A DNA stretch of 64,000 bases. Origin: a bacterium (lineage in GTDB: Bacteria > 4484-113 > JAFGCY01). The stretch covers positions 128,404 to 192,403 of the forward strand of contig JAGRNT010000005.1 of assembly GCA_020440605.1 (NCBI GenBank), read 5' to 3'. Shown here piece after piece: positions 8,080 to 56,756 of this stretch (position 1 is the stretch's first letter; every line of letters starts with the position of its first letter). The position numbers and the translations under genes are program-made. The notes below the pieces were generated by a model. It was not told where the DNA came from, made no database searches, and was given only the letters and a program-made list of their open reading frames with translations.

Positions 8080-8080
8080 C

Positions 8081-8647: not shown

Positions 8648-8648
8648 G

Positions 8649-9212: not shown

Positions 9213-9214
9213 GT

Positions 9215-9769: not shown

Positions 9770-9772
9770 CAT

Positions 9773-11002: not shown

Positions 11003-11114
11003 AACTTCAGGTTGTAGGAGCTGGGTTGTAGGACATTGGGGGTGTCGAGCTTCGCTCGACCTGAATAATCATGGTGACGCGAAGCGTCACACCAGCCCTA
11101 CACCCTGCAACCTA
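11003..11114. repeat. MITE-like inverted-repeat element, family A copy (about 90% identical to 10328-10441)
   Basis: aggttgtaggagctgggttgtaggacattggg…gtgacgcgaagcgtcac…ccctacaccctgcaacctagctcctatgtcc. Confidence 0.55.
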
Positions 11115-11675: not shown

Positions 11676-11677
11676 TG

Positions 11678-11798
11678 CTCACTCCTGTTGAGGATCTAGG
11701 AGCTAGGTTGTAGGGTGTAGGGAATGTGTGACGCTTCGCGTCACCATGGTTATTCAGGTCGAGCGAAGCTCGACACCTACCCTAGGTCCTACAACCTA
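11678..11798. repeat. MITE-like inverted-repeat element, family A copy
   Basis: gaggatctaggagctaggttgtagggtgtaggg – gtgtgacgcttcgcgtcac – gtcgagcgaagctcgac – cctaggtcctacaacctagctcctacaccc. Confidence 0.5.
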
Positions 11799-12368: not shown

Positions 12369-12491
12369 TCATCACTCCAATTGAGGATTTAGGATCTCGG
12401 TTGTAGGACCCAGGGGATGTGTCGAGCTTTGCTCGACCAGAATGATTCCGGTGACGCGAAGCGTCACACAAACCCTACTCCCTACAACCTA
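12369..12491. repeat. MITE-like inverted-repeat element, family A copy
   Basis: gaggatttaggatctcggttgtaggacccagggg – gtgtcgagctttgctcgac – ggtgacgcgaagcgtcac – ccctactccctacaacctagctcctacaccc. Confidence 0.5.
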
Positions 12492-13061
12492 GCTCCTACA
12501 CCCTCGCTGCACCGTCTGCCTGATTGGCAGCTTTTCCCATTCATCGCGCAGGATCCTGTAACAGGGCGATGGCAACAGTCTGCCGGCCTTGTAGAGGTAG
12601 CCGTAATGCTTGCCGGCCAGCTGCATCCCGCAGGCCATCAGCCCGGCCTTGGCCCTGCTGTGCTCGTCCGTGGTGTCCGCCCAGACGCATTCGATCGGAA
12701 AGTTCTCGAACAGGTGGCAGAGATTGAGCAGCTTGGCCTCGCGGCCGAAGCCCTGGCCCCAGTGCTGCCTGGCAATGATCGTGCCGATCCAGGTGTTCGT
12801 GCGCGTTGCATTCATCCCGCCGTACTCCTCGAAGCCGACGGCCTCGCCGGTGTCCAGGCGCTCGATCGCGAAGCAGGAGTACTCGTCCGTGGACAGCATC
12901 CCGCCCGGTACGAACTCCTTTCGCTTCTGGAGTTCCGGCCAGTGCCAGTCCCCCCAGAATTCGTTGAAGTTGCTTTCCATGTCCGTCTGCACCTTCATCC
13001 ATTCATCCAGATCCCTGAAGGGTCTGATCCGGGTGCGCTCACCCGTGTACACAACATGCAT
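12489..13061 (-). CDS. GNAT family N-acetyltransferase, paralog 9
   Basis: The track start is TTG at 13073; the ATG is at 13059-13061 (MHVVYTGERTRIRPF…). Motif HWGQGFGREAKLLN. C-terminus …WEKLPIRQTVQRGCRS. Confidence 0.75.
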   Translation of the reverse strand: MHVVYTGERTRIRPFRDLDEWMKVQTDMESNFNEFWGDWHWPELQKRKEFVPGGMLSTDEYSCFAIERLDTGEAVGFEEYGGMNATRTNTWIGTIIARQHWGQGFGREAKLLNLCHLFENFPIECVWADTTDEHSRAKAGLMACGMQLAGKHYGYLYKAGRLLPSPCYRILRDEWEKLPIRQTVQRGCRS

Positions 13062-13074
13062 TGCTCTCTCCAAT

Positions 13075-13145
13075 AGTGGTGAGTGCTCAGTGGTCAGAAT
13101 TCAGATCAACCTGACTACTGACCACTGACTACTGACCACTCTCCT
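13075..13145. repeat. heptamer tandem/inverted repeat array (CTGACCA/CTGACTA), family B
   Basis: cagtggtcag … ctgactactgaccactgactactgaccact. Overlaps the last codons of paralog 10. Confidence 0.45.
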
Positions 13146-13674
13146 GCCATTCACTCCGTGTGATCCCGCAGTAGACGATTCCCGTCCACTTTCCGCGGGA
13201 GTACCAGTTGACCCGGGTCCGGCCCAGCTCACGCATCCCGCAGCTCAGCATCCCGCCGATCGCCGCCTGATGGCTGGCCAGCGTCCCGCCGTAGACCATC
13301 TCCACCGGGAAGTTGTCAAACAGCAGCTGCATGGCCAGCTGCTTGGCCTCCCGGCCGTAACCCCTGCGCCAGTGCGGCTCGAGGATCATCGTGCCGATCT
13401 CCGTGGCGGTGCGGCTGCCCGTCGGGAAGCGCAGCACCTCGTAGCCGACCAGCTCCCGCTCCGCCAGCGTCTCGATTGCCAGGAAGGAGAAGTAGTGCGA
13501 CTCGTCCAGCATCCCGCAGCGGGACCAGTCCTGCTCGAGTGAGGACAGTGCCGTCCAGCCGTAGCCCCACCAGTCGTCGCGCTGCATCCACAGCTCATGG
13601 TTGAGCTGTGCATACTCCGCGGCGCTGGCGAAGGGCCTGAGCCTGACGAGCCTGCCTTCGATTGTCATCTGCAT
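13129..13674 (-). CDS. GNAT family N-acetyltransferase, paralog 10
   Basis: ATG at 13672-13674 (MQMTIEGRLVRLRPF…). Motif HWRRGYGREAKQLA. Confidence 0.75.
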   Translation of the reverse strand: MQMTIEGRLVRLRPFASAAEYAQLNHELWMQRDDWWGYGWTALSSLEQDWSRCGMLDESHYFSFLAIETLAERELVGYEVLRFPTGSRTATEIGTMILEPHWRRGYGREAKQLAMQLLFDNFPVEMVYGGTLASHQAAIGGMLSCGMRELGRTRVNWYSRGKWTGIVYCGITRSEWQESGQ

Positions 13675-13679
13675 ACCAG

Positions 13680-13792
13680 TGCTCCTTCGGAACAGTAAGT
13701 GGTCAGTAGTCAGTGGTCAGTAGTCAGTGGTAAGGAAGGATTCAGTCTGACCACTGACCACTGACTACTCACCACTCACTACTGTCCAGCGA
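13680..13792. repeat. heptamer inverted repeat array (GTGGTCAGTAGTCAGTGG … CTGACCACTGACCACTGACTACT), family B
   Basis: Two opposed arrays of 7-nt units flank aggaaggattcagt. Together they form a long imperfect hairpin. Confidence 0.45.
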
Positions 13793-14360
13793 ATTCCCGC
13801 CGCTGCTGCTCGGCCAGTTCCCGGTAGGCCGGGGCGATCCAGCCGTAATGGTGCACCGCCACCGGCTCACCGAGCCACATCTGCATGCGCTCGAACACCA
13901 CCTCCAGCTCATAGCCGCAGTCCTTCAGCCAGCCGGCCTTGGCGGCTTCCGGCTCGATGATCTCGCAGCCGATCCGCACGGGGTCGTGCCAGTCCATCAT
14001 CAGCGACTCATAGGCCTTCAGCAGGTCGATGCCGACGGCGTCACGGTCCGCGATGTTGTCATCGACATGCACCGTGGTCCAGTAGACGCGGTTCTGGCCG
14101 CGCTGGATCAGGAAGCCCACCACACCGCCGGCCCTGCGCACCGCGACGTAGTACTTCTCCCCGCTGCTCCAGAGCCCGGGGTCCTTCTCGTCCTCGAACT
14201 TCTTCTTCAGCCGCTGCAGGGTCCAGGGCGTGGGCTTGCGTTCGCAGGGGTTCTGCGCCATCAGCGGGGCCAGCTGCTCGAGGTCCTTCTCCAGCACGGG
14301 GCGCAGCACGATATGCTCGCCCTCCACGAAGCCGCGTTCGGTGTTTGCGTTGTCAGTCAT
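13779..14360 (-). CDS. GNAT-like acetyltransferase, divergent paralog 11
   Basis: ATG at 14358-14360 preceded by an AGGAGA SD (MTDNANTERGFVEGEHIVLRPVLEKD…). Motif IVLRP plus a GNAT-like core. More divergent than paralogs 1-10. Confidence 0.6.
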   Translation of the reverse strand: MTDNANTERGFVEGEHIVLRPVLEKDLEQLAPLMAQNPCERKPTPWTLQRLKKKFEDEKDPGLWSSGEKYYVAVRRAGGVVGFLIQRGQNRVYWTTVHVDDNIADRDAVGIDLLKAYESLMMDWHDPVRIGCEIIEPEAAKAGWLKDCGYELEVVFERMQMWLGEPVAVHHYGWIAPAYRELAEQQRREFAGQ

Positions 14361-14970
14361 TTCCGTTCTCCTGTGTTCCATTCTCTCGTTCAGTCATGTT
14401 GCCACCGTTCCCACGGTGGACTTCCGCCAGCCAGGGCTGGCTGCGCCATTCCCGGCGCGTGATCACCCAGTGGCTCATCGCCGCGTGACTGCCGGCGCTG
14501 TACTGGCTGCAGGGCACGAGACCCTCGCAGCGCATCCCGCAGCGCCGCAGTCCGGTCAGGGCCCGCACATGCGTTGCCAGGGTCCGGGCGCTGACGCGTT
14601 CCACCGCGAAGTTCTCAAACATGTAGCACATTGCCAGGCGCTTGGCCTGCATGCCGAATCCGCGGCTCCAGTGGCGCCTGAGGATCAGCGTACCGATCAG
14701 GGCGTCGAGCTGGCCCTCGCACATCGGTGCGAGGATCTCGATGCCCACCGCCCGGTCATCCGTGCCGTCAGTGATCGCCAGCTGGCCCCAGCTGCCGTTG
14801 TCAATTCCGCTGTCACGCTCGAAGGTGCTGCGCAGAACCCGTTCGGTGCGCCACATCGGACCCCAGAACGGGTTGAACTCGTCCTCCAGCCCGCGCCGGA
14901 CGCGCATGAATTCATCCAGGTCCCTGAAGGGCCTGAGACGCACTGGTCCTGCGGCGTAGTGCAGCTGCAC
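14353..14970 (-). CDS. GNAT family N-acetyltransferase, paralog 12
   Basis: GTG start per the track (MQLHYAAGPVRLRPF…); no nearby in-frame ATG. Motif HWSRGFGMQAKRLA. First GNAT after the ABC ATPase. Confidence 0.65.
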   Translation of the reverse strand: MQLHYAAGPVRLRPFRDLDEFMRVRRGLEDEFNPFWGPMWRTERVLRSTFERDSGIDNGSWGQLAITDGTDDRAVGIEILAPMCEGQLDALIGTLILRRHWSRGFGMQAKRLAMCYMFENFAVERVSARTLATHVRALTGLRRCGMRCEGLVPCSQYSAGSHAAMSHWVITRREWRSQPWLAEVHRGNGGNMTERENGTQENGND

Positions 14971-18916: not shown

Positions 18917-18946
18917 TTGATAACTTTGTTGATACAATGTTAATAT
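18917..18946 (+). promoter_or_regulatory. candidate promoter for the TPR/beta-barrel gene
   Basis: TTGATA-N17-TTAATA (or N18-TAATAT) in an AT-rich patch of the divergent intergenic region. Confidence 0.25.
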
Positions 18947-19045: not shown

Positions 19046-22000
19046 ATGACAATCAGCGGAGGATGGCGCATCTGGCTGCTGGCTGTGACCGTCTGCACGG
19101 TCATGGTCCTGCCTGCGCTCGCCCAGGAGGATGCCTTCAGCCGCGCCGATGCGGCCTATGCCCGCGGGGAGTGGGCGGTGGCCCGCCAGGAATACGAACG
19201 CATCGTTGAAATCTACCCCGGGACCGCCAGTGCCTGGCTGCGTCTGGCACGGATCCATACAGAGCTCGGCAACTGGAACGATGCGATCCTGATGTACGAA
19301 ACCCTCGACGGGCTGGGGCCGATGGACCGCGATACCCGCATGGCCTACGGCGATACCCTGCGCAGCGCAGGCCGGCTGGAGGAAGCGCTGGTCCAGTATG
19401 AGCTGGCGGTGCATGAGGCTCCCGTCGTGGATAGCGTGGATGCCGCCCTGTCCGCCGCCAAGGCCGCGCTGGAGCGCGGTGATCAGGATCAGGCGCTCTC
19501 CACCTATGAGCAGATCACACGCAACTGGCCCGGACATCCGACCGCCTGGCTCGGTCTGGCCCGGATCAGGGCCGCGCGCGCGGAATGGGATGCAGCCGTG
19601 GCGGCCTTCGTGAAGCTGGAGGAACTTGGTCCGCTGGGCCGCGAGATCCGCCTGGAATATGGCGACGCCCTGCGCGGTGCCGGCCGGCTGGAGGAGGGCG
19701 TGGCCCAGTACAACATGGCGGTGGGCCAGCCGATGTCGCCGGAATTCCAGCAGACCGCGCGCTACCTGCCGGATGCCGTGACCGTGCAGATCGTCGACGC
19801 CTCCCGGCTGGAGGAACAGGACAGCCGCCGCCCGCAGCATATGCTCGTGGTTCCCGGTGAGGAGCAGCGCAGTCTGGAGCAGGCCAGCCTCCGCCTGGAG
19901 GAACAGTCTCCGCAGAATGAAGTACCGCCTGCCGCGGATGCCCCGACGACTCAGCAGGATCCGCCGCCGCTGCAGGCGCAGCACACTGAGCGCGCGACTG
20001 ACAACTGGAAGGACTTCGATCCGGCCGCTGCCAGTTTCCGCAGTTCGCGGATCGAGGACCTGCCGGGCGAGGATGAACAGAGCATCATGGCGGCCCTGCT
20101 GCCGCCCGAGCCGCCGCTGCGTGAGGCTGGCAACACGGATGTGCCGTCCGATGAAGCGGACGGTGCCAACCGCCGTCTGCGCAATACCGCCGAGTTCTTC
20201 AAGGGTGCGGAAATCCATACCCTGCAGACCGCCGATGCCGATCCGGCCACGGCCGGGGGCAGCATGGACTGGCTGGCAACGGCCCGCGGGCATTTCGATG
20301 CCGAGCAGTGGCAGGACAGCGTGCTGGCCTTCGAGAACTACATCGAGCAGGTCGGTGACGACGCGCTTGAGCCGGAGATCCGTCTAGAGTACGCCCTGGC
20401 GCTGCTGGAGGCCGGCCAGAACGGACTGGCCGAGGAGAATATCTCGCTCGTGCTGCACCAGCAGCCGGACAGCACCGCGGGCCGGATCGCGCTTGCCAAG
20501 CTGCTCTCGCGCACAGGCGAGCTGAATGACTCGATGCTGCTGCTGGACCAGCTGCGCATGGACAGGAACAGCCAGACGGAAGTGCGTCTCGCGCGGATCT
20601 ACGGCTACTTTCACAATGACTACATCCAGGAAACCCTGATGGACCTCGGCGAGCTGATCGCCACCAACCCGGCCAATGCCGACATCAAGGAGCTCGTCGC
20701 CAGCGGCGCACCCTGGACTGAGGTCCGCCCGCTGCTGGAGGCCCGGCCCGGCAATGAGCGGATCATCGAGATGGCGGAGGTCGTCAAGGCCCGCCTGCTC
20801 TCGGAGATGGACGTGGGTGAGGCCGACATCGCCAGTGTGGCGATCCAGCTCTATGAAAGCGGGGAGTACGACGCTGCCAGGGAGGACTTCGAGGCCCGTG
20901 TGGCGGCGGATCCGGAGGACAGCCAGAGCTGGCGCGGGCTGGCGGTGCTGACAATGGTGGCCCGTGACAACGCGGCGAGCATCGCGGCCTGGGAGGCCTA
21001 TCTGGAGCTGCTGCCCGATGACACCGATGCGCGGCTGTACTACGCCCAGGTGCTGATGCGCTGCGACTGCAGCCGCGCGCTGTGCGAACTCTGGGGCCTG
21101 ATCGCGCTCGGTGAGCCGGAGAACGAGGCCGGGCGCAAGCTCTATGAATTCCAGCCGGGAGTGACAACGCTGCCGGAGGATGCCTGGGTCGATGCCGCGA
21201 CCTACGAGGATGCGCTGCTGAACTACGCCATCGCACTTTCGATCTGCGAGCGCGGCAAGGAATCGCTCTACTGGTTCCGCCAGGCGCTGTACTGGCAGCC
21301 TGACAACCCGGACTGGCAGAGCTACTACGCAGGTGCGCTGAACACGCTCGGGCGCTACGAGGAGGCGCTCGGGATCTACTGCAGCGTGCTGCGCAGCAAT
21401 CCGGGGCATGGTGCGGCGGTGCTGGGGCGGGGCTACACCCATGCTTCGATGGGCCGCTACCGCGATGCCTTCCGCGACTGGGACGGGATTCCGCTGGACA
21501 GCCAGTTCTACGTCCCGGGGCGGATTGCCAAGGCCTACGGCCTGCTCTGGAAGGGCCAGCGCAGCGAGGCGATGGCGATGGCCTGCTATGCGATGCGCGA
21601 GGATCCGGAGAGCTGCGAGGTCTGGGACCTGCTGCGCGCACTGAAGGACATCCCCGACCCGAGCATGGACCAGGCCTGGCGTCAGAGTCATGACAGCGAA
21701 GACAACGACCTGCGTGCCAACACCACGAGCATCAACATCCCGCTCGATGCCCGCGGTTCAGCGGCGAGCATCGTGCATGAGGAATTCCGGCTTGACAACA
21801 CGGAGCAGGGCCAGCTCAGCGACGGCACAGCCACGAGCCTCGGCTTCAGCCTGCCGCGCAATGACCGCGAGCGCTTCAGCGTGCTGGCCCGCTACCTCGA
21901 GATTGACAACGACACCGATCCCGGGACTGACAACTGGGACTGGTCGGCGGCCTACAGCCTGCGGATCAATGACCGGCGCAGCCTGCGCCTGGCCCGGGAC

Positions 22001-22552
22001 AGCCGGATGTTCTATGACACGCCGCAGCTGGCCCGCAGCGGGGTCGTGCTCGACGAATGGACGCTGAGCGCTGAAATGCCCTTCATGGGGGATGAGGACA
22101 CGCAGCTGATCGCCAGCCTGTTCAGCGGCAGCCTCAGCGATGGCAACAGCCGCATCGGCACGGACTGGCGCCTGCAGCGTGAGCACATGCACTGGGGCAT
22201 GGGCCGGCTGATCTACGGCCTGCACTTCGCCACGCTGGACTACTGCCAGGATCTGAGCAGCGGCTACTGGGACCCCAACAACTACCGCTTCGGTGAGGTC
22301 TACGCCGACTGGGTGGACATGAGCCGCAACGACTTCCTCTGGGATTTCGGCGTCGGCTACGGCTGGGATGACGCCGCCGACCGCTCGCCCTCCGACGTGC
22401 TGCGCTACAAGGTCGGGCTGCGGGCGCGGCTGTTCCACGACCGGCTGACGATGCGTGCCGGTTACAGCAACAGCGAGCTGGCGACGATCGTCAGCGACGG
22501 GCCGGGCTACCGCTTCGCGCAGTGGAGTCTCTCCGGCCAGGTGAAGTTCTGA
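19046..22552 (+). CDS. TPR-repeat protein with C-terminal outer-membrane beta-barrel (BcsC/PgaA/PelB-like polysaccharide export scaffold and porin)
   Basis: Signal peptide MTISGGWRIWLLAVTVCTVMVLPALAQED. Many TPR-like repeats. The C-terminal about 300 aa have an alternating hydrophobic pattern and end in …WSLSGQVKF (aromatic terminus). Confidence 0.7.
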   Translation: MTISGGWRIWLLAVTVCTVMVLPALAQEDAFSRADAAYARGEWAVARQEYERIVEIYPGTASAWLRLARIHTELGNWNDAILMYETLDGLGPMDRDTRMAYGDTLRSAGRLEEALVQYELAVHEAPVVDSVDAALSAAKAALERGDQDQALSTYEQITRNWPGHPTAWLGLARIRAARAEWDAAVAAFVKLEELGPLGREIRLEYGDALRGAGRLEEGVAQYNMAVGQPMSPEFQQTARYLPDAVTVQIVDASRLEEQDSRRPQHMLVVPGEEQRSLEQASLRLEEQSPQNEVPPAADAPTTQQDPPPLQAQHTERATDNWKDFDPAAASFRSSRIEDLPGEDEQSIMAALLPPEPPLREAGNTDVPSDEADGANRRLRNTAEFFKGAEIHTLQTADADPATAGGSMDWLATARGHFDAEQWQDSVLAFENYIEQVGDDALEPEIRLEYALALLEAGQNGLAEENISLVLHQQPDSTAGRIALAKLLSRTGELNDSMLLLDQLRMDRNSQTEVRLARIYGYFHNDYIQETLMDLGELIATNPANADIKELVASGAPWTEVRPLLEARPGNERIIEMAEVVKARLLSEMDVGEADIASVAIQLYESGEYDAAREDFEARVAADPEDSQSWRGLAVLTMVARDNAASIAAWEAYLELLPDDTDARLYYAQVLMRCDCSRALCELWGLIALGEPENEAGRKLYEFQPGVTTLPEDAWVDAATYEDALLNYAIALSICERGKESLYWFRQALYWQPDNPDWQSYYAGALNTLGRYEEALGIYCSVLRSNPGHGAAVLGRGYTHASMGRYRDAFRDWDGIPLDSQFYVPGRIAKAYGLLWKGQRSEAMAMACYAMREDPESCEVWDLLRALKDIPDPSMDQAWRQSHDSEDNDLRANTTSINIPLDARGSAASIVHEEFRLDNTEQGQLSDGTATSLGFSLPRNDRERFSVLARYLEIDNDTDPGTDNWDWSAAYSLRINDRRSLRLARDSRMFYDTPQLARSGVVLDEWTLSAEMPFMGDEDTQLIASLFSGSLSDGNSRIGTDWRLQREHMHWGMGRLIYGLHFATLDYCQDLSSGYWDPNNYRFGEVYADWVDMSRNDFLWDFGVGYGWDDAADRSPSDVLRYKVGLRARLFHDRLTMRAGYSNSELATIVSDGPGYRFAQWSLSGQVKF

Positions 22553-22628
22553 ACCCACCCCGCTTTACCCCGATTTAACCGGATTGCCAATCCTCCCTTC
22601 CCCCGGCTGCCAACAGCGCTGCGCCTGA

Positions 22629-22657
22629 TTGACAGCACCCCGCTGGCGGGCTACACT
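22629..22657 (+). promoter_or_regulatory. candidate sigma70-type promoter for the MBOAT gene
   Basis: TTGACA (22629-22634), 17-nt spacer, TACACT (22652-22657). Confidence 0.4.
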
Positions 22658-22718
22658 GGTGCCCGTCCAGCCGGGACATGTGGAGAATGGCAGCGCCCTC
22701 AGGCGGCCTGCCCCCGCC

Positions 22719-24125
22719 ATGCAGTTCCAGACCCTGATCTTCGCCGTGTTCTTCGTGCTCGTGCTCAGCGCGAACTGGCTGCTGCGCCGCCGGGACATGC
22801 CGCGCAAGATCCTGCTCGTGCTGGCCAGCTACTACTTCTACGGGGCCTTCAACTTCTTCCTGCTGGCGGTGCTCGGCAGCTCCTCGCTCCTCAACTACCT
22901 CTGCGGCGAGGGTATCCACCGCGCCCGTGAGGCCGGCAACAAGGCTCTGCAGCGCACCTGGTTCATGGCCGGGATCTGGCTGAACCTGCTGGCACTCGGG
23001 ATGTTCAAGTACTACGGCTTCTTCCAGGCCAGCCTCGAGGACCTGCTGGGCCGCTTCAACATGAGTTCGCACCTGCCGATCCTCGAGATCATGCTGCCGG
23101 TCGGGCTGTCCTTCTACACCTTCCAGGGCCTGAGCTACATCATGGACCTGAACCGCGGCAAGGGCCTGCGCGCCAGGACGGTGGTGGACTTCCTGCTCTA
23201 CATCTCCTTCTTCCCGCAGCTGCTCTCCGGCCCGATCTGCCGCCCGAAGGAACTGCTGCCGCAGCTGCATGAGGGCCTGCCTGAAAGCATCCCGGAACCC
23301 GGCCGCGCGGTCTCCCTGATCCTCTCCGGCCTGTTCAAGAACGTGGTGCTCAGCCATTACCTCTACATGCACATCGTCGGCAATGTCTTCAACGACCCCT
23401 CCGACTACTCCGCGCCCACGCTCTGGGTGGCGATGTTCGCCTATGCGCTCTACATCTACGTGGACTTCAGCGGCTACACCGATCTCGCCGTGGGTCTCTC
23501 GCTGCTGATGGGAATCCGCATCCCGCACAACTTCAACCATCCCTACCTGGCAACGGATGTCTCGAACTTCTGGGGCCGCTGGCACATCACGCTTTCGCGC
23601 TGGATCAATGACTACCTGTTCGTGGCGCTGGGCGGGCGTGACATCAACAGGCGCTGGAGCGCGCTGTTCTGGGCCTGGGTGCTGGCCGGGCTCTGGCACG
23701 GCGCGGCCTGGACCTACATCCTCTGGGGCACATACTTCGCCCTGGCTCTGCTGCTGCACCACTATCTGAGGAGCGGCATCAAGAAGAAATGGAAGGGCGG
23801 CGTGGCCGGCCAGCTCGGGACCTTCCTCGTGGTCTGCTTCGGCTGGCTGATCTTCGCCTCGCCGGACCTCGAAAGCCTCTGGGCCTACCTGACGGGGATG
23901 TGGCGCTTCGGTGCACCGGGCGAGGGCTTCGAGGCCTTCGTGCTCGTGGTGCTGGCCCTCGGCGCCGTGATGCACATCTTCGGCGAGCGGCTGCGCAGTG
24001 GCTTCATCCGGGTGCATGATGCGATGCCGCTGGCGCTGCGGCCGGTGGCCTGGCTGGCGATCGGGCTCGTGATCCTCGCGCTCAAGCCCAGCGGCATGTC
24101 GCCAAATCTCTACTTCGGATTCTGA
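22719..24125 (+). CDS. MBOAT family O-acyltransferase (AlgI/DltB/PatA/WssH-like)
   Basis: Polytopic membrane protein with the MBOAT His motif GRWHITLSRWINDYLF. Probable start MQFQTLIFAVFF at 22719; the track ORF begins 90 nt earlier. Confidence 0.85.
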   Translation: MQFQTLIFAVFFVLVLSANWLLRRRDMPRKILLVLASYYFYGAFNFFLLAVLGSSSLLNYLCGEGIHRAREAGNKALQRTWFMAGIWLNLLALGMFKYYGFFQASLEDLLGRFNMSSHLPILEIMLPVGLSFYTFQGLSYIMDLNRGKGLRARTVVDFLLYISFFPQLLSGPICRPKELLPQLHEGLPESIPEPGRAVSLILSGLFKNVVLSHYLYMHIVGNVFNDPSDYSAPTLWVAMFAYALYIYVDFSGYTDLAVGLSLLMGIRIPHNFNHPYLATDVSNFWGRWHITLSRWINDYLFVALGGRDINRRWSALFWAWVLAGLWHGAAWTYILWGTYFALALLLHHYLRSGIKKKWKGGVAGQLGTFLVVCFGWLIFASPDLESLWAYLTGMWRFGAPGEGFEAFVLVVLALGAVMHIFGERLRSGFIRVHDAMPLALRPVAWLAIGLVILALKPSGMSPNLYFGF

Positions 24126-24126
24126 G

Positions 24127-24441
24127 ATGGACGAACATACACAGACTGACAGTTCGACGGAGGAGCAGCAGGGGCGGATGAGCCCGGTCTTCCTGATCGT
24201 GAGCAGCTGGCTGATCCTCGGCCTGCTGATCCTGCTGTTCGGCTATGACATCAATTACTGGGCCTTCGGCTCCGACAACGACTTCATGCAGGAGCAAGTC
24301 GTGCCCCGGACCCAGAAGCTCAGCGGCTTCTGCGTCGACAGCGGGATCCGTGGAGCGCGCACGGCGGTGGAGGATAAGGTGCATCCGCTATATGACGATT
24401 CCCCGCTCTGGGCTGAGATCGAGGAAGCGGATGAGGAGTAG
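24127..24441 (+). CDS. small membrane protein coupled to the MBOAT gene
   Basis: ATG overlaps the MBOAT stop (TGAGATG). One TM helix (VFLIVSSWLILGLLILLFGY) and an acidic C-terminus. Confidence 0.45.
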   Translation: MDEHTQTDSSTEEQQGRMSPVFLIVSSWLILGLLILLFGYDINYWAFGSDNDFMQEQVVPRTQKLSGFCVDSGIRGARTAVEDKVHPLYDDSPLWAEIEEADEE

Positions 24442-24563
24442 TTTTGCATCGGACAGGCGCGATCCGATACTGAACAGCAGCTCAGCGCTGTCGTCAGAAG
24501 CGCGGTAATCAAGCAAGCGGGAGTCGGCCGGGCGGTGATCCCTCCCCGGCTATAATCAGCAAC

Positions 24564-25283
24564 ATGTCAATCAAGCGAATCAGAATCACGGCAATGGCAA
24601 TCCTGGCTGCGGCCTTCATGCTTGCCAACCTGGGCACGGCGCGCGCCGAGAGCACCACGATCCTCGTGGTCGGCGCTTCCTCGATCGAGGGCACGCTGGG
24701 CAAGGAGCTGGAGGACCGGCTCGAGGGCTACAAGGATGTCAGGATCGTGCGCTGGGGCCAGCATTCCACCGGGCTTGCCAACCCCGAGCTGCTGGACTGG
24801 CAGGCCAAGCTCGAGGAGCTCCTGAAGGCCCACAAGCCGGACCTGGTGCTGGCGGACCTCGGTGAGAACGACTGCGCCCCGGTCACGGATGCCAGCGGCC
24901 CGCTGGCCCGCTTCGGTACCCCGGAGTGGGAGAAGATCTACGGCGAGCGCGTGGAGAAGTTCGTGAGCACGGTGGTTGCCAGCGGCGCTGACAGCGTGAT
25001 GATGGGGATTCCCACGATGCGCGACCGCCAGTTCAGCCAGCAGGTGGAGCAGCTCAACAAGGTGCTGAAGGCCTCGACCGAGGCCGGCGGCGGATTCTAC
25101 CTCGACACCTGGGCCTTCACGGCCGATGCCAAGGGCCGCTACGTGCCGAACCTTGAGTACGAGGGCAAGGACCGCATGATCCGCGCCAGCGACGGCGTGC
25201 ACTTCAGCAAGCACGGCTCCGAGTACATGGCCTTCAAGGTCTGCGCGATCCTCGAGGACCGCTACGGACTGCAGTCCAAGTAG
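24564..25283 (+). CDS. SGNH/GDSL-like hydrolase-fold protein (AlgJ/AlgX/PatB-like acetyltransferase partner of MBOAT)
   Basis: Signal peptide. ILVVGASSIEG block (a GDS(L)-like motif with an Ala substitution) and LGENDC block II. TATAAT sits 8 nt upstream of the ATG. Confidence 0.6.
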   Translation: MSIKRIRITAMAILAAAFMLANLGTARAESTTILVVGASSIEGTLGKELEDRLEGYKDVRIVRWGQHSTGLANPELLDWQAKLEELLKAHKPDLVLADLGENDCAPVTDASGPLARFGTPEWEKIYGERVEKFVSTVVASGADSVMMGIPTMRDRQFSQQVEQLNKVLKASTEAGGGFYLDTWAFTADAKGRYVPNLEYEGKDRMIRASDGVHFSKHGSEYMAFKVCAILEDRYGLQSK

Positions 25284-25287
25284 CCCC

Positions 25288-25362
25288 GCAGTCCGCCGGA
25301 CTGCGTGATTTAAGCATTATTTAAGCGGGGATTGCCAGCGCAGTCCCCGCATTGTCATTTTC
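25288..25362 (+). terminator. candidate Rho-independent terminators (two hairpins)
   Basis: gcagtccgccggactgc (7-bp stem) followed by gtgattt. gcggggattgccagcgcagtccccgc followed by attgtcattttct. Confidence 0.4.
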
Positions 25363-25423
25363 TGCGGCTAGAATACGCAACTGTCGAGCCCGCTCATGGA
25401 TGGATCGACGGGAGATATCGGAA

Positions 25424-25528
25424 ATGCTGCGCAAGGCGTTGATTGTCATCGGGGTGATCGGAGTTGTCATCGGCGTGAACCTGCTGCTGTTCGGCCCCGT
25501 GTATGAGATGGTGAACGTGATTCAGTGA
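25424..25528 (+). CDS. possible 34-aa hydrophobic peptide
   Basis: GGAGA RBS 7 nt upstream of the ATG. MLRKALIVIGVIGVVIGVNLLLFGPVYEMVNVIQ is a single TM helix. Confidence 0.3.
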   Translation: MLRKALIVIGVIGVVIGVNLLLFGPVYEMVNVIQ

Positions 25529-25593
25529 GCCGCCCGGCTGCGGCCGTCTGAGCGAGCACGCCCGCCGGCGTTTCCAGAACTGGATGGTCCCCG

Positions 25594-27276
25594 ATGCCGC
25601 GACTGACCCACTGCCTGCTGTGCCTCACGCTTCTGGCCACGCTAGCGCTGCCCTGTGGCACGAGCGCTGCCCCTGACTCCTCCGGGCCGGCCTTCCCGCG
25701 CCTCGTGATGTGGTATCCCACGCACCCGAAGACCCGCATGGAGGACCGTGCGCGCTTCGACCTGTTCGTGGGTGACTTCGCCACCGGCGTTCCCGGTGAA
25801 CGGCCCAGCGGCAGGAACAAGGGCAGGACCCTGGCCTCCGAGCTGCGCCGTGCCAACGGCAGCACGCAGCTGCTGACCTACTACCGGCCGCTGGTGATCC
25901 GCCCCAGCTCACTCTACGAGGGGACGCGCAAGCACAATCCGCTGCTGGGCAGCTGGCCCGTGAACTGGTTCATGACCGAGGCCGGCAGCAGCCTCGCGGC
26001 CCCGCTCACTGCAGGCGACACGCAGCTGAAGGTGGTGGACTGGGAGCAGTCGGGCGAGGCCCAGGGCAGCCGCCCGCGCAGCTGGGTGATCTGGAAGGCC
26101 AGCCAGGATATCCAGGTCGACAATGAGATCATGACGATCAGCGCCGTGGATGAAGCCACGCGCACGCTCACCGTACAGCGCGGCATGAACGGCACGCAGG
26201 CTGCGGCGCATGCGGCCGGGACGCGCACTGCCCCGCTGGCCCGCTTCTGGCGCGGCAGCTACATCATGAACCTCACCGACACCAGCGGCACTGCCAGTCT
26301 GGACGGGGCCGGAAGCGCCGAGGACTACGCCGGCTACGCCTTCCGCATGGGCCTTGAGGGTGCCAACGAGTGGTTCGGCTACATCGGAGGCGACCAGGAC
26401 GGCTTCCTCTGGGACATGCTGCCTGACAACCTGAGCTGGCTGATGTGGACCGACACCCGCAGCCTGGATCTCGACCGTGACAACGTCCCCGACAGCTTCG
26501 CGAGTCTCGACAGCGCCTGGGAGCGTGCGCTCGCCCGGCAGAATGCCATGTTCGCCGAGCGCTTCCCCGGCAAGGCGATCGTGCGCAACCAGAGCCGCAG
26601 CCGCGACTTCGACAGCTACAACGGCGAAAGCTTCGTCTCCTTCCCGCACGACCAGTGGAACGGCGGCGACCCGGATGACACCGCGGGCTGGACGCGCTTC
26701 TGGCATGACGTGTTCCTCGGCGGCCCGGAGGAGGCGCGCGGCGGGATCGCGCAGTTCCAGCAGGGCAATGTCACGCCGAACTTCACGCAGATCATCACCG
26801 ACGACCTGGAGATGGACCTCGACAGTGCGGGCTTCCCGGAGCTGAAGAACCCGGAGACGGCCTCGCGCTTCAGGCCGAACTACCGCAAGATGCGCTGGGG
26901 TCTGTGCTCGGCGCTGCTTTCCGGCAGCTACTACGGCTACGTGATCACCACGGACGGCTACGGCCTGCGCGGGATCGAGTGGTTCGATGAATATGACGAC
27001 GCCGGCAGCGGCCGCGGCTACCTCGGCTTCCCGCAGGGCGAGATGCAGCAGCTGAGCAGAAGCGCTGACAACGCTGATCACGGTGTCTGGGGCCGCGAGT
27101 ATGACAACGGTTACGTGCTTGTCAACCCGCTTGAGCGCGCGGTGGAGGTGCAGCTGCCGGCCGGGAAATGGCAACGCATAAAGGGCACGCAGGTCCCGGA
27201 GGTCAACAGCGGCGCAGTCGAGGAGGGCAGTGTGACGGTGCCGGCCTTTGACGGACTGATTTTGAAGAGGATCTAG
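25594..27276 (+). CDS. secreted protein, possible glycoside-hydrolase-like TIM-barrel (polysaccharide processing)
   Basis: Signal peptide MPRLTHCLLCLTLLATLALPCGTSAAP. 560 aa, Trp/Asp-rich. The context with MBOAT/SGNH/TPR-porin suggests a PelA-like role. No catalytic motif confirmed. Confidence 0.5.
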   Translation: MPRLTHCLLCLTLLATLALPCGTSAAPDSSGPAFPRLVMWYPTHPKTRMEDRARFDLFVGDFATGVPGERPSGRNKGRTLASELRRANGSTQLLTYYRPLVIRPSSLYEGTRKHNPLLGSWPVNWFMTEAGSSLAAPLTAGDTQLKVVDWEQSGEAQGSRPRSWVIWKASQDIQVDNEIMTISAVDEATRTLTVQRGMNGTQAAAHAAGTRTAPLARFWRGSYIMNLTDTSGTASLDGAGSAEDYAGYAFRMGLEGANEWFGYIGGDQDGFLWDMLPDNLSWLMWTDTRSLDLDRDNVPDSFASLDSAWERALARQNAMFAERFPGKAIVRNQSRSRDFDSYNGESFVSFPHDQWNGGDPDDTAGWTRFWHDVFLGGPEEARGGIAQFQQGNVTPNFTQIITDDLEMDLDSAGFPELKNPETASRFRPNYRKMRWGLCSALLSGSYYGYVITTDGYGLRGIEWFDEYDDAGSGRGYLGFPQGEMQQLSRSADNADHGVWGREYDNGYVLVNPLERAVEVQLPAGKWQRIKGTQVPEVNSGAVEEGSVTVPAFDGLILKRI

Positions 27277-27800
27277 GTTCTAGGTGCTCGGTACTAGGTT
27301 CTAGGGCTGGCGTATCAATGGTCCGTGAAGTAAGCTGCTGGAAACCACAAAAGGAATATCTCCATGGATATCCAGTCTCATCGCGACCTGATTGTCTGGC
27401 AACGTTCCATGCAGCTTGTCAGGCAGGTTTATGAACTCACTCGCCGATTTCCACGGGAGGAGCTTTACGGACTCACTTCGCAACTGAGGCGAGCAACCGT
27501 GTCCATTCCGGCGAATATCTCCGAAGGGCATGGCCGGGGCACGCGCAGGGATTACGCCCACTTCGTGACTATGGCAATGGGAAGCGCTTGTGAGGTGGAA
27601 ACTCTGCTCGAAACGAGTGTGATCGTCGGCATTGTTTCCTATGACGAGATTCGCATTTGTGCGGGTCTTCTTGACGAAACGGGAAGAATGCTAAGGGTGC
27701 TCCGCAGGAGACTGCTGAGTCGGGAATAGCTGAAATGGCCGGAGTTGGCAGGGATTCCCCTAGCACCTAGCACCTCACACCTAGAACCTAGTTCGACTTA
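27258..27800. mobile_element. MITE-like element with CTAGG-rich terminal inverted repeats carrying a four-helix-bundle gene
   Basis: Left TIR ctaggttctaggtgctcggtactaggttctaggg. Right TIR cctagcacctagcacctcacacctagaacctag is its near reverse complement. Confidence 0.45.
27364..27729 (+). CDS. four-helix-bundle protein (23S rRNA intervening-sequence protein family, TIGR02436)
   Basis: IVWQRSMQLVRQVYELTRRFPREELYGLTSQLRRATVSIPANISEGHGR is the family hallmark. AAGGA RBS. Confidence 0.8.
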   Translation: MDIQSHRDLIVWQRSMQLVRQVYELTRRFPREELYGLTSQLRRATVSIPANISEGHGRGTRRDYAHFVTMAMGSACEVETLLETSVIVGIVSYDEIRICAGLLDETGRMLRVLRRRLLSRE

Positions 27801-30574: not shown

Positions 30575-31183
30575 CTATTCGAACAATACCTTTGACGTTA
30601 CTCTGTTTCCATTCTTTGCAAAACTATTTCCCAAGTTACGTGATTGCATTAGTGATTCAATGTTTACTACAGCACCAAAAGTGATGAATACATTATGAAA
30701 TCGATTAAAGTTCTGTCCCCAATAGATCATCGCACAGGACATTGGAGCACCTTTCCCCGTGTCTTTGCCGCATTCCAAAAATTTCAGTCTTGTGTCATAT
30801 AGGAAGCATATTCCGTTAGCTGCGCCCCACACGCTATTCTTCCAATGTGAAGTATTGGTTGCCACCGGTACTAAAGCCAATACTTCTGAGCCAAATTGTA
30901 TATGAGCCATATAACATTTTTCTAACCAGGAACTAATACGCGTTCCTCTTTGATGATCTTTGCCATAAGGTGGATTTACATAAATCGTTCTATAATTCCA
31001 AGTGTTTGCTAAGCCATCATTATCTGGTAGCATCCACTCAGTTTCTGCATTAACAATAGAATATTCACTTGAGCAAGGATCTAGTAATATTTGTCCACCG
31101 AAGAAATCTCGAACTGCATTAACATACTTTGCGGGTGTTCCCCAGTCTTGGCGTTTAGTGTAGATTGTGCGACCAGCGGTCAT
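30575..31183 (-). CDS. DNA N6-adenine methyltransferase, phage Dam-like (PF05869-type)
   Basis: ILLDPCSSEYS and YVNPPYGK (the DPPY-class motif IV). The first ATG at 31181-31183 overlaps the upstream gene's stop (ATGA). The gene is AT-rich compared with the rest of the window. Confidence 0.7.
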   Translation of the reverse strand: MTAGRTIYTKRQDWGTPAKYVNAVRDFFGGQILLDPCSSEYSIVNAETEWMLPDNDGLANTWNYRTIYVNPPYGKDHQRGTRISSWLEKCYMAHIQFGSEVLALVPVATNTSHWKNSVWGAANGICFLYDTRLKFLECGKDTGKGAPMSCAMIYWGQNFNRFHNVFITFGAVVNIESLMQSRNLGNSFAKNGNRVTSKVLFE

Positions 31184-32322
31184 TGCAGTATGTTTCTCCA
31201 ATCCTTTTGTGCTAGAGCTTTCAGATCTGCTCGAAGTTTGTCTAAATCCTGATCTCTCGGCGCGATGACATTATACCATGAATATATATGCGCAATATTC
31301 TCGTCAAAATACCTCATCAATTGCAAGTGCGCGTCCAAACCGATCTTAACTTTTGTGAACTGATTGTTTCCACTTTTTCCAGAATAACTGCTGCGAAAAA
31401 TATCTCTAATTATCGAATAATCTCCAGATGGATTTATAAGGAGATTGTGTATGAATTCTCCAATGCCTTCGTCTGTTAGGAAAAGCAACCAGTCGTAACT
31501 TTGCGCCAGAACTCTCATTTCTTTATTCATGTTTTCTGCAGTGAACCAATTTCCATGATTGCTTACGATGCCTATTGTCAACGTGAAATTTTCCAATGTG
31601 AATGGATCATTACTTTGAATAATAGTATCTAGAAAATTTGAATAATTATCAACAACTAGTTGTCCACTATTGTTTGCCTGAATACCGACGACGGTACCAT
31701 CTGGCATGCGGAAGCGCTGAAGTGATGATACGGTGCGAGCGACATACGCTCCCTGTTTTGCTTTTTCTATAGTTTGTGGACCCTTTTTCATTCCTTCTTC
31801 CACACCAACGCGCTTGCATTCAACGATTGCATAGGGCGATGAGTAGATTTTTACAATAGAGAGATTCGCTTTCATCTCCTTAAAATCAGAGAGAAACGCT
31901 TGATAGTATGTGTTTCCAGATTCTGCAATGACACAACTGTTTCTATAAACAAAGTCCTTGGACAATAATTGATTGTTCTTCTTGTCTGTCTCAATTTTTC
32001 TCCTAAGCTCATTTGGAACAGACTTGAGTATTCTGGCGGTTGACAGGGGTCGATCAATAAGCGAAACAGGGATAACTTCACTATCAATGATAGGATGTAA
32101 AGAGAATTCAACATTGTGTGCTATTTCGCTGTTTGAATATTCAGAAATTGTATTTTCTATAGAAATACTGTCTCGCAGTCCCCATGTAACAAGCGTGTAA
32201 TATGTCATCAATTCTACAAAAGTCCCTAACGCTCTACCCGCTGCCTTTTTCCTGTCTTTGGCATAACTAAAAACTGTTTCAGCAAGTTCATTCTGTAGCT
32301 TGTCCACTGAATCAGGTGTCAA
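31180..32322 (-). CDS. putative Type II restriction endonuclease (partner of the methyltransferase)
   Basis: 380 aa, AT-rich. TTG start with a GGGAGA SD. Candidate PD-(D/E)xK core …SPYAIVECKRVG…. Stop overlaps the MTase start. Confidence 0.4.
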   Translation of the reverse strand: MTPDSVDKLQNELAETVFSYAKDRKKAAGRALGTFVELMTYYTLVTWGLRDSISIENTISEYSNSEIAHNVEFSLHPIIDSEVIPVSLIDRPLSTARILKSVPNELRRKIETDKKNNQLLSKDFVYRNSCVIAESGNTYYQAFLSDFKEMKANLSIVKIYSSPYAIVECKRVGVEEGMKKGPQTIEKAKQGAYVARTVSSLQRFRMPDGTVVGIQANNSGQLVVDNYSNFLDTIIQSNDPFTLENFTLTIGIVSNHGNWFTAENMNKEMRVLAQSYDWLLFLTDEGIGEFIHNLLINPSGDYSIIRDIFRSSYSGKSGNNQFTKVKIGLDAHLQLMRYFDENIAHIYSWYNVIAPRDQDLDKLRADLKALAQKDWRNILQ

Positions 32323-32339: not shown

Positions 32340-32395
32340 AGTCTATTAGCTGCATAGCCCTTCGCTACACCCTAGCTCCCAGCTCCTACGTCCTT
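32340..32395. repeat. solo MITE-family-A terminal repeat
   Basis: gctacaccctagctcccagctcctacgtcc sits at the junction of the AT-rich island and high-GC DNA. Confidence 0.35.
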
Positions 32396-33607
32396 CTTTA
32401 TCACGCCATGCTTCTCGCCGCAGCGGATGAAGGCCTCCACGCAGTGGTCGATCTGCTCCGTGGTGTGGCTCGCTGACAACTGCACACGGATGCGGGCCTT
32501 GCCCATCGGCACCACCGGATGGCTGAAGCCGATCACGTAGATCCCCTCGTCCAGCATCGAGCGCGCCATGTCGGCAGCGAGGCGGGCATCGCCGAACATC
32601 ACTGGCACGATCGGGCTCTCGCCCTGCACCAGCGTGAAGCCCGCTGCCTCCATGCGCCTGCGGAAATGCGCAGCGTTGGCTTCCAGGGTGTCGCGCAGCG
32701 CGGTGCCTTCCGTCAGCATCTCCATCACTTCCAGCGCGCCGTAGATCACCGCAGGCGGCACGGCATTGCTGAACAGGTAGGGGCGGCCGCGGTTGCGCAG
32801 CAGGCTGACAATCTCCGGCGGGCCGGCCACCAGGCCTCCCGAGGCCCCGCCGAGCGCCTTGCCGAGCGTGGTGGTGATCACATCCACCCTGTCCATCACA
32901 TTGTGGTGCTCATGCGTGCCGCGCCCCGTCCGGCCGATGAAGCCCGTGGCATGGCTGTCGTCAACCACCAGCAGCGCGCCGTACTGCTCGCAGAGTTCGG
33001 CGATGCGGTCCAGCGGCGCGATCATCCCGTCCATGCTGAACACGCCGTCGGTGACGACGCAGATGCTGCGCGCCTTGTCCTTCCACATCTGCAGCTTCTT
33101 CTCGAGGTGCGCCGTGTCGCTGTTCTTGTAGGTGTCGCGCTGGGCCTCGCAGAGCCGGATGCCGTCAATCAGCGAGGCGTGGATCAGGCGGTCGGAGATG
33201 ATCACGTCCTCCCTGCCGAAGAACACCTCGAAGAAGGCCGCGTTGGCATCGAAGCAGCTCGCAAACAGGATCGCCTCCGGCATCCCGAGGAACTCCGCCA
33301 GGCGCTGCTCCAGCTCGTTGTGGCTGTCCTGCGTGCCGCAGATGAAGCGCACGCTGGACATGCCGTAGCCGCGCTCATCGAGCCCGCGCCGGGCCGCCTC
33401 CACCACCCGTGGATGGCTGGCCAGCCCGAGGTAGTTGTTGGCGCAGAAGTTGAGCACGCGGCGCGGGGCGCTGCCCAGCGGGTACTCGACCTCGATCTCC
33501 ACGCCCTGGGCACTGCGGATGTAGCGCTCGTCCTTGCTCAGGCCGGCGGCGCTGAGTTCCTCCAGGGTCTGCGTGAGCCGCGTGCGCAGCTCGTTCGTAT
33601 ATGCCAT
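32372..33607 (-). CDS. alpha-oxoamine synthase, PLP-dependent (glycine C-acetyltransferase Kbl / serine palmitoyltransferase-like)
   Basis: Class II aminotransferase fold. VRFICGTQDSHNELE and the PLP-lysine region TLGKALGGASGGLVAG are present. 411 aa. Confidence 0.8.
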   Translation of the reverse strand: MAYTNELRTRLTQTLEELSAAGLSKDERYIRSAQGVEIEVEYPLGSAPRRVLNFCANNYLGLASHPRVVEAARRGLDERGYGMSSVRFICGTQDSHNELEQRLAEFLGMPEAILFASCFDANAAFFEVFFGREDVIISDRLIHASLIDGIRLCEAQRDTYKNSDTAHLEKKLQMWKDKARSICVVTDGVFSMDGMIAPLDRIAELCEQYGALLVVDDSHATGFIGRTGRGTHEHHNVMDRVDVITTTLGKALGGASGGLVAGPPEIVSLLRNRGRPYLFSNAVPPAVIYGALEVMEMLTEGTALRDTLEANAAHFRRRMEAAGFTLVQGESPIVPVMFGDARLAADMARSMLDEGIYVIGFSHPVVPMGKARIRVQLSASHTTEQIDHCVEAFIRCGEKHGVIKKDVGAGS

Positions 33608-33640
33608 CGGGGTTCCCCCTGCCGTCCGCGCGGACGGATC

Positions 33641-33895
33641 CTAATGCCTTTCCTGCAGCTTGCGGCTGACGAGGGACTGGATGCGGCTGACGGTCTCGAA
33701 TTCCTCCGTGCTGGCCTCGTCGTCGTCAATCTCGATCTCGAACTCCTGCTCGAGGTACAGCTTCAGGCTGACCATCGAGAATGAGTCCACGAGCCCGCTG
33801 GAGATCAGCGGGGTGTTGTCATCGACCTCGGTGCCGTCGTCAACGTATTCATCATGGATGAACTGGATGATCTTCTCGCGCAGCTCTCCGCTCAT
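33641..33895 (-). CDS. acyl carrier protein (dedicated, phosphopantetheine-binding)
   Basis: ATG at 33893-33895. ISSGLVDSFSMVSL contains the DSF/DSL phosphopantetheine-attachment Ser. Acidic, 84 aa. Confidence 0.65.
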   Translation of the reverse strand: MSGELREKIIQFIHDEYVDDGTEVDDNTPLISSGLVDSFSMVSLKLYLEQEFEIEIDDDEASTEEFETVSRIQSLVSRKLQERH

Positions 33896-33967
33896 GGCGC
33901 TCCTCCCACATTCTGGCAATCACCGCCAGGGCGGCGTCCACCATTATAGCGAAGTACGGCCTGCGGC

Positions 33968-56707: not shown

Positions 56708-56756
56708 GCTTTGAACCTCAGTATTCTGTACAGCACACTGTCCGGTGCAGGCCCGC

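Follow-up and report, generated by a model that had tools for sequence, protein, structure and literature searches.

The region described here covers positions 19046 to 27276 of a 64-kb stretch of DNA (hereafter the window; G+C content 63%) and contains five open reading frames (ORFs), encoding a long protein of TPR repeats with a C-terminal barrel, an MBOAT O-acyltransferase, a small membrane protein, an SGNH-fold protein and a secreted protein of 560 aa. A previous reading of the letters alone (the sequence-only reading) had taken this cluster for a module that O-acetylates an exopolysaccharide and exports it through the outer membrane. All five ORFs were found on the forward strand at the positions collected in Table 1, and their G+C content at third codon positions (0.83-0.91) is of the coding type; all five are real genes. 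The studied region is 95% identical in DNA to contig JAWLAZ010000001.1 of an unclassified 'bacterium' metagenome-assembled genome (GCA_041395205.1), and its proteins are 70-86% identical to those of CP060262.1 (HK-STAS-UBP7_A-1) and HKST-UBA01, both labelled UBP7. The cluster comes from an uncultured bacterium of the candidate phylum UBP7.

Table 1. Genes and sequence features of the cluster (positions in the window)
Feature	Position	Strand	Basis or remark
Promoter-like match TTGATA-18-TAATAT	18917..18946	+	9/12 consensus, pattern match only; 100 nt 5' of the TPR-barrel gene
Gene of the 1168-aa predicted outer-membrane export protein	19046..22552	+	Translation; TPR Pfam matches; ortholog
Predicted C-terminal 16-strand beta-barrel domain (aa 869-1168), PgaA/BcsC/PelB structural class	21650..22549	+	AlphaFold2, Foldseek
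Promoter-like match TTGACA-17-TACACT	22629..22657	+	10/12 consensus, pattern match only; between the TPR-barrel gene and MBOAT (166-nt gap)
MBOAT membrane O-acyltransferase, 468 aa, PatA/AlgI-type	22719..24125	+	PF03062, His motifs
Acyl-shuttle Tyr motif NLYFGF (FxYxxF type), C-terminal hexapeptide	24105..24122	+	Sequence; kept in relatives
104-aa single-pass membrane protein, translationally coupled to MBOAT	24127..24441	+	Homology to PatB-like N-termini
239-aa putative periplasmic SGNH O-acetyltransferase, PatB/DUF459 family, own signal peptide	24564..25283	+	PF04311
Two hairpins 3' of the SGNH gene: 9-bp perfect palindrome (25287-25305); 11-bp stem with T-rich tail (25325-25350)	25287..25350	+	
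Conserved 34-aa hydrophobic micro-ORF (MLRKALIVIGVIGVVIGVNLLLFGPVYEMVNVIQ)	25424..25528	+	3' of the terminators and 5' of the 560-aa gene
560-aa secreted TIM-barrel glycoside-hydrolase-like protein (GHL15-like)	25594..27276	+	GHL15 sub-threshold, AlphaFold2, Foldseek

The 1168-aa protein starts with a signal peptide, judged by eye (aa 1-26, ...PALA/QE), followed by two TPR blocks with an acidic low-complexity linker between them and by the C-terminal barrel. There are 21 TPR-type Pfam matches from aa 31 to about 890 (TPR_16, E=1.1e-32), and the ortholog in JAWLAZ010000001.1 is 97.6% identical. For the 300 residues of the barrel domain, AlphaFold2 with a 15-sequence alignment gave 16 strands (pLDDT 92.6, pTM 0.86). 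Searched against the PDB with Foldseek, this model found exopolysaccharide porins as its top five folds, namely PgaA (4y25, TM 0.74), three of BcsC (6tzk at 0.79, 9b8a at 0.77, and 9b8h; range 0.77-0.79) and PelB (9h80, 0.74), ranked ahead of CdiB (0.60) and OmpG (0.47). The barrel that the sequence-only reading had likened to those of BcsC, PgaA and PelB thus reappears in the structural model, and at the level of the predicted fold the protein is a TPR plus 16-strand barrel porin of the exopolysaccharide class. The domain itself is rare: an exhaustive HMMER search returned only 22 representatives among 1.84 billion representative proteins, nearly all of them the C-terminal part of long TPR proteins with an aromatic last residue, and the ...QVKF end seen here is the aromatic terminus common to the whole family. 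No match was found for the domain in Pfam, NCBIfam or the sequences of the PDB, and a PDB profile search gave TodX only (E=0.4). The PgaA model TIGR03939 scores 51.1 bits against a cut-off of 366.65, through the TPR part alone, and the BcsC model 19.7 bits against 858.

The MBOAT protein matches PF03062 (E=3.6e-21, 76.3 bits, cut-off 27) and keeps both His motifs, WGRWHITLS and GLWHGAAW, in an alignment to DltB 6bug, and the O-acyltransferase assignment made from the sequence alone is borne out. Its true start is the ATG at 22719, where all relatives begin with MQFQTL; the TTG listed as a start at 22629 is instead taken as a -35 hexamer, because the TTGACA-N17-TACACT match occupies positions 22629-22657. 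This promoter-like element, pointed out earlier, is present as described, with its 10/12 agreement being a pattern match in a region that holds five such sites against 1.2 expected.

For the family comparison of the MBOAT protein, Proteus PatA, DltB and the C-terminal motif were considered. The protein ends in ...SPNLYFGF, in which the FxYxxF motif retains its Tyr and terminal Phe but has Asn for the first Phe; the relatives end in xLYFGF or xIYFGF. PatA of Proteus mirabilis is 33% identical over the full length and ends in GFIYASF, aligned with NLYFGF. In PatA, the invariant Tyr of the C-terminal FxYxxF motif becomes auto-acetylated, and the acetyl group is then handed to PatB (Anderson et al., 10.1101/2024.09.17.613324). 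MBOATs with such a fused Tyr motif use acyl-CoA and partner with an SGNH protein, whereas DltB needs a separate DltX (10.1101/2024.09.17.613324). The sole NCBIfam match is the DltB model TIGR04091, at 166.1 bits and a cut-off of 375, and no DltA, DltC, DltX or DltD partner was found in the window. An identity as DltB, which the sequence-only reading had named as the outcome that would overturn it, is ruled out by the sub-threshold score, the fused Tyr motif and the lack of such partners.

The SGNH protein belongs to the PatB/DUF459 family as judged by PF04311, which it matches with E=1.2e-51 and 175.3 bits (cut-off 27.2) over profile positions 1-195 of 197. Among PDB entries, it is related to solved PatB structures alone (7trr, E=1.7e-18). 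The SGNH blocks are kept across relatives (I, GASS; II, QHST in QHSTG; III, GENDC; V, DGVH), and they supply a Ser/Asp/His triad and the Block III Asn, aligned to KQST, GPND and DGIH of PatB 7trr. The transferase signature is that Ser or Asn stands in place of the Block II Gly, and QHST fits the KQST/KQNT turn that separates transferases from esterases. An identity as a generic lipase was considered and ruled out by the family match together with this transferase-type Block II. The dedicated NCBIfam PatB model NF045704 gives 76.3 bits against a cut-off of 580. No Pfam match at E<=0.01 was obtained to the AlgX/AlgJ/WssI-type domain (PF16822), the only matches being DUF459 and generic GDSL models. 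Of the AlgJ/AlgX/PatB/WssI role assigned to the protein from the sequence alone, the PatB part therefore stands and the remainder falls. The protein is best described as a putative O-acetyltransferase of the PatB/DUF459 family, a family that one review equates with the PatB peptidoglycan O-acetyltransferases. PatB takes N-acetylglucosamine (GlcNAc) oligomers, i.e. chito-oligosaccharides, in vitro.

The membrane helix and linker are not on the same polypeptide as the SGNH domain; the anchor is a separate ORF. In fact, the 104-aa protein, described earlier as a coupled small membrane protein, is single-pass and starts 1 nt past the MBOAT stop codon (24125/24127). It shows homology to fused PatB-like proteins over their N-terminal membrane helix and juxtamembrane segment (tblastn, E=2.8e-5), with 14 invariant positions in comparison with the N-termini of those in two related loci, L008 (340 aa) and L006 (352 aa). 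In L006 and L008 the anchor, linker and SGNH domain are in one polypeptide, as in canonical PatB, and in three UBP7 genomes the 104-aa protein is kept as a separate ORF, the catalytic half having its own signal peptide. By this homology, the 104-aa protein is the membrane anchor of a PatB-like protein, detached from its catalytic half. The SGNH gene is followed by two hairpins; both had been called terminators, and the terminator pattern is seen in the second and not in the first.

The secreted 560-aa protein carries a signal peptide and matches GHL15 (PF14885) at 23.7 bits, below the 27-bit cut-off; its homologs P0008 and P0014-P0016 carry a precomputed PF14885 match. Its AlphaFold2 model (pLDDT 81.7) is a TIM barrel into which a beta domain is inserted, with a beta-sandwich at the C-terminus. 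GH168 endo-fucanases give the best Foldseek matches (TM 0.56-0.62 by target), ahead of GH36, GH66 and GH13. The GH114 or PelA-like fold for which a check had been proposed is absent from the top 50 matches. Based on the modeled fold, the protein is a probable glycosidase. Its family is small, with 13 close homologs, and its gene follows the SGNH gene in UBP7 genomes only; in L017/L018, a 48%-identical homolog directly adjoins an operon of the order CE4-receiver-HEAT-GT2-437aa-390aa. The 34-aa micro-ORF upstream of the 560-aa gene is found at the same position with 79% aa identity in UBP7 genomes L004/L005, in which the flanking proteins are 72-80% identical to those of the window, and with 100% identity in L001. 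It may encode a real membrane microprotein of the module.

The arrangement of these genes in relatives was surveyed in JGI metagenomes and in genomes sampled at one per GTDB species, which yielded ten loci with the barrel domain, including the identical-sequence pairs L004/L005 and L006/L010; eight have enough flanking sequence (L003-L008, L010 and L011). In all eight, the MBOAT gene lies 0.1-7 kb downstream of the barrel gene, and a PatB-like SGNH gene follows MBOAT in all six loci whose contig continues past it. This linkage spans barrel proteins of 33-99% identity, with the most divergent loci at 33-38%, while the genes flanking the barrel and MBOAT genes differ among the loci. What lies between the two genes also varies: a CE4 deacetylase gene in L007 and L011, and in L008 proteins resembling an FGE-sulfatase, a histidine kinase and an HD-domain (HD_5) response regulator. 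As a separate observation, L004/L005 hold two secreted PKD-repeat proteins (344 and 660 aa) at this place (11061-14081), which are absent from the window.

In L007 and L011, one strand, leading away from the barrel gene, encodes a receiver-domain protein, a HEAT-repeat protein, a processive GT2 glycosyltransferase and a 458-aa protein without known domains, and the other strand encodes, in this order, a conserved secreted protein of about 800 aa, the TPR-barrel protein and MBOAT, with the CE4 deacetylase gene between the last two on the opposite strand. These two loci look like the complete system. The approximately 800-aa protein adjoins the barrel gene in L006-L008 and L011, and adjoins the GT2 operon in UBP7; it gave no sequence match in Pfam, NCBIfam or the PDB and no profile similarity to the 560-aa family, but judged by eye it may be a clan-A-like glycosidase. 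The best evidence that the barrel module and the GT2 operon form one system is that the approximately 800-aa and 560-aa proteins switch between the two halves from genome to genome. A gene of an S15 X-Pro dipeptidyl-peptidase is also found beside system components in L006 (2446-4149), L008 (231-1949) and L017 (6178-7902), three loci otherwise arranged differently.

The partner GT2 has PgaC_IcaA (TIGR03937) as its best NCBIfam match, at 135.7 bits and a cut-off of 422.3; it also matches Chitin_synth_2 and Glyco_trans_2_3, and the QRRRW motif is present. With the GT2 of L007 as query, a 64%-identical protein (P0056) was found on the same 1.88-Mb contig as a 97%-identical copy of the module. The P0056 locus (L013) encodes the approximately 800-aa protein (55% identity with its L006 counterpart; gene divergently transcribed), a receiver protein, a HEAT protein that has a single membrane helix, a GT2 with QRRRW and terminal membrane helices, a single-pass protein of 484 aa orthologous to the 458-aa protein, two secreted proteins, one of 348 aa and the other an alpha/beta-hydrolase, and a membrane protein of 153 aa. 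Window bases 1-39 agree with the final 39 nt of L013 at 38 of 39 positions. From this junction, the GT2 stop in JAWLAZ010000001.1 lies 9,962 nt left of where the window begins, which places the GT2 about 27-29 kb from the barrel gene. The junction match and the 95% identity suggest that the window's own genome continues in the same way past its edge. When the likely genes of the whole 64 kb were compared with Pfam, no glycosyltransferase, PilZ or GGDEF domain was found. The sequence-only reading was therefore right that the window holds neither a synthase nor a c-di-GMP (cyclic di-GMP) receptor, and its suggestion that the synthase may lie outside is borne out by a PgaC-like GT2 operon about 10 kb to the left in the 95%-identical genome. 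Within L013 (8365-15721), the stand-alone receiver protein and the membrane-anchored HEAT protein are directly upstream of GT2, a trio kept in L007, L011 and L017. No PilZ or GGDEF domain was seen in the receiver/HEAT/GT2 loci, and there are hints that control is based on phosphorylation rather than on c-di-GMP.

Taken together, the domain identities, the barrel fold, the catalytic motifs, the gene linkage seen among relatives and the synthase's place in a near-identical genome make it likely that the cluster supplies outer-membrane export, O-acetylation and a probable glycosidase for an undescribed synthase-dependent exopolysaccharide system, of which it is one half, the two loci lying about 27-29 kb apart. 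The barrel fold, the MBOAT and SGNH motifs and the linkage to GT2 thereby uphold the function first proposed from the sequence. A PgaC-like processive GT2 would polymerise the polysaccharide, probably one based on N-acetyl-hexosamine, and translocate it across the inner membrane. MBOAT would move an acyl group, presumably acetyl, from cytoplasmic acetyl-CoA to the Tyr of its C-terminal NLYFGF tail, from which it would pass to the active-site Ser of the PatB-family SGNH protein, possibly held at MBOAT by the 104-aa anchor fragment. The SGNH protein would then O-acetylate the nascent chain in the periplasm; a GlcNAc-type polymer is a plausible substrate since PatB takes GlcNAc oligomers in vitro. 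Finally, the TPR array would take up the chain and the 16-strand barrel would pass it through the outer membrane, and the 560-aa TIM-barrel protein may trim or release the polymer.

Several observations weigh against this assignment. At the sequence level, the barrel matches no PgaA, BcsC or Pfam barrel model, and a crude count of lumen-facing charges in it (18 acidic, 15 basic) is uninformative. The SGNH protein is without similarity to the AlgX/AlgJ/WssI family of known exopolysaccharide systems, and the characterised members of DUF459/PatB all acetylate peptidoglycan. CE4 is absent from the UBP7 loci examined, and in L002 and L016 the 560-aa homologs are found by themselves. In the lineage of the window, about 29 kb with unrelated genes separates the barrel gene from the synthase, and the linkage of the synthase there rests on orthology with the loci of other genomes.

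The enzymes might instead be this lineage's PatA/PatB system, in which MBOAT, the 104-aa protein and the SGNH protein would O-acetylate peptidoglycan, for resistance to lysozyme or autolysins, beside an unrelated porin gene. Membership of the SGNH protein in DUF459/PatB is strong (175 bits; PDB PatB, E=1.7e-18), the family is described as one of peptidoglycan O-acetyltransferases, and the best full-length annotated matches of MBOAT, Proteus PatA at 33% among them, partner DUF459 proteins. Stand-alone MBOAT-DUF459 pairs exist in proteobacteria, MBOAT has a promoter-like site of its own, and the CE4 enzyme of the relatives could equally be a peptidoglycan deacetylase. However, the barrel gene stays next to the MBOAT gene in eight of eight loci despite rearranged flanks and insertions of 0.1-7 kb, the CE4 gene lies between the barrel and MBOAT genes in L007 and L011 and adjoins the GT2 operon in L017, and the score of 76 bits is far from the PatB equivalog cut-off of 580. 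Furthermore, an Ape1 esterase is absent from the window and from all related loci, unlike the two canonical clusters examined, those of Proteus and of Sphingomonas pR1a. The in vitro use of GlcNAc oligomers by PatB makes a GlcNAc polymer a plausible alternative substrate, and a role in peptidoglycan O-acetylation is considered unlikely. The pR1a cluster was itself tried as an exopolysaccharide precedent and ruled out, being a canonical PatB/Ape1/PatA cluster.

It is also conceivable that the module serves the polymer of another synthase, the GT2 operon and the barrel module being separate systems. Such a separation would fit the 27-29 kb of unrelated genes that part the two loci in UBP7, and also L006 and L008, which show no GT2 within 10 kb and so count against a single system as well. 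The orthologs of both halves nevertheless form one divergent locus in L007 and L011, the approximately 800-aa protein adjoins either the barrel (L006-L008, L011) or the GT2 operon (UBP7), and the 560-aa protein either the acetylation genes (UBP7) or the GT2 operon (L017), so that two separate systems seem very improbable. Hardly credible is a Dlt-like D-alanylation system, or a set of unrelated genes (a generic lipase and a TPR protein) without common function. DltB does provide the only NCBIfam match and the only solved homologs of MBOAT, but the score of 166 is below the cut-off of 375, the fused C-terminal Tyr motif is lacking in DltB, and no DltA, DltC or DltX accompanies the gene, the acyl carrier protein at 33.6 kb being paired with an aminotransferase. 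The SGNH protein is of the PatB family and neither DltD nor a lipase, and the conserved synteny argues against unrelated genes.

Among known systems, PgaABCD of E. coli and Ica of staphylococci, which make poly-N-acetylglucosamine (PNAG), share with the exopolysaccharide system proposed here a TPR plus 16-strand barrel porin (PgaA fold, TM 0.74), a GT2 whose best model is PgaC/IcaA and, in the relatives, a CE4 deacetylase comparable to PgaB/IcaB. Staphylococcal PNAG is O-acylated, a step attributed to IcaC. Unlike the PNAG systems, the cluster and its partners do not reach the Pga equivalog cut-offs (PgaA, 51 bits against 367; PgaC, 136 against 422), neither a PgaD nor a c-di-GMP module was seen, and acylation would proceed through MBOAT and a PatB-type SGNH protein rather than an AT3 protein. 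The HEAT, receiver, 458/484-aa, approximately 800-aa secreted and GHL15-like proteins are extra parts.

The acetylation genes resemble PatA/PatB/Ape1 of Neisseria, Campylobacter and Proteus in the MBOAT with its C-terminal Tyr shuttle motif, in the DUF459 SGNH transferase with its Block II Ser and Ser/Asp/His triad, and in the presumed relay from acetyl-CoA to Tyr, Ser and sugar. They differ in that identity to the Proteus proteins is only 33% (PatA) and 26% (PatB), in that the PatB-like protein comes as two pieces, a 104-aa anchor and a secreted catalytic domain of 239 aa, in that Ape1 is absent, and in that the genes sit within an exopolysaccharide export and synthesis set. From this gene context, the substrate is probably not peptidoglycan. 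MBOAT/SGNH O-acetylation coupled to TPR/barrel export is also known from alginate (AlgI/J/F/X with AlgK/E) and acetylated cellulose (WssF-I with BcsC). In contrast to these, the SGNH protein lies outside the AlgX/AlgJ/WssI family, no AlgF/WssG homolog was identified, and the synthase is PgaC-like rather than Alg8 or BcsA; a single polypeptide combines the TPR and barrel parts, which is the arrangement of BcsC, PgaA and PelB but not of AlgK plus AlgE. The Pel system has in common the TPR-barrel porin fold (PelB 9h80, TM 0.74) and a secreted glycosidase-like protein in the cluster, but the 560-aa protein has no specific match to PelA (GH166) or GH114, and no homologs of PelD, PelE, PelF or PelG were found. 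O-acetylation by an MBOAT pair is not known for Pel.

Compared with known systems, the novelty would lie in a PatB-family rather than an AlgX-family acetyltransferase in an exopolysaccharide context, split into anchor and enzyme, along with a rare porin family, conserved partners without known domains and the absence of any visible c-di-GMP module. A more far-reaching proposal is put forward tentatively, with some doubt prevailing: that UBP7 and Planctomycetota-like bacteria possess an undescribed class of system, in which a PatA/PatB pair, a type known until now from peptidoglycan O-acetylation only and here with a secondarily split PatB, was recruited for a PNAG- or chitin-like polymer under receiver/HEAT control without c-di-GMP. 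The general mechanism, synthase-dependent with periplasmic O-acetylation and TPR-porin export, is already well known, and no categorically new mechanism is involved.

Elsewhere in the window, about a dozen tandem paralogous genes of roughly 180-300 aa each are found on the reverse strand at 7537-14970. The five of them scanned with Pfam are all GNAT acetyltransferases (Acetyltransf_3), and the array, followed by an ABC ATPase and a methyltransferase, aligns with the 95%-identical relative in patches only, which suggests copy turnover. Directly after the cluster, at 27364-27729 (forward strand), lies the gene of a 121-aa four-helix-bundle protein of the '23S rRNA intervening-sequence / bAvd-like' type, whose equivalent in JAWLAZ010000001.1 is on the opposite strand with an intergenic segment of different length. 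A low-G+C island at 30575-32322 (46% against 63%) carries genes for a Dam-type N6-adenine methyltransferase and for a protein of 380 aa in which no known domain is recognised; a different gene, of 271 aa, takes its place in JAWLAZ010000001.1, and the island is probably a strain-variable mobile or restriction-modification insert. At 32372-33919 (reverse strand), a class I/II aminotransferase (serine palmitoyltransferase/KBL-like) stands beside a small acyl carrier protein, a pairing that recalls bacterial sphingolipid synthesis. Four tandem paralogous genes of about 1030 aa each occupy 50415-63012 (reverse strand), with CarboxypepD_reg as the sole recognisable domain in the three scanned.

DUF459/PatB is currently treated as a marker of peptidoglycan O-acetylation. 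If the link to an exopolysaccharide proves true, it would widen the substrate range of this family and would caution against the default annotation of MBOAT/DUF459 pairs as peptidoglycan enzymes. The split PatB offers a natural test of what anchor and linker contribute to the acyl hand-over from the MBOAT tail, and the rare porin family, together with several conserved partners that have no recognised domains, extends the short list of synthase-dependent secretion systems. In conclusion, the cluster provides a first functional handle on the surface-polymer biology of the uncultured phylum UBP7.

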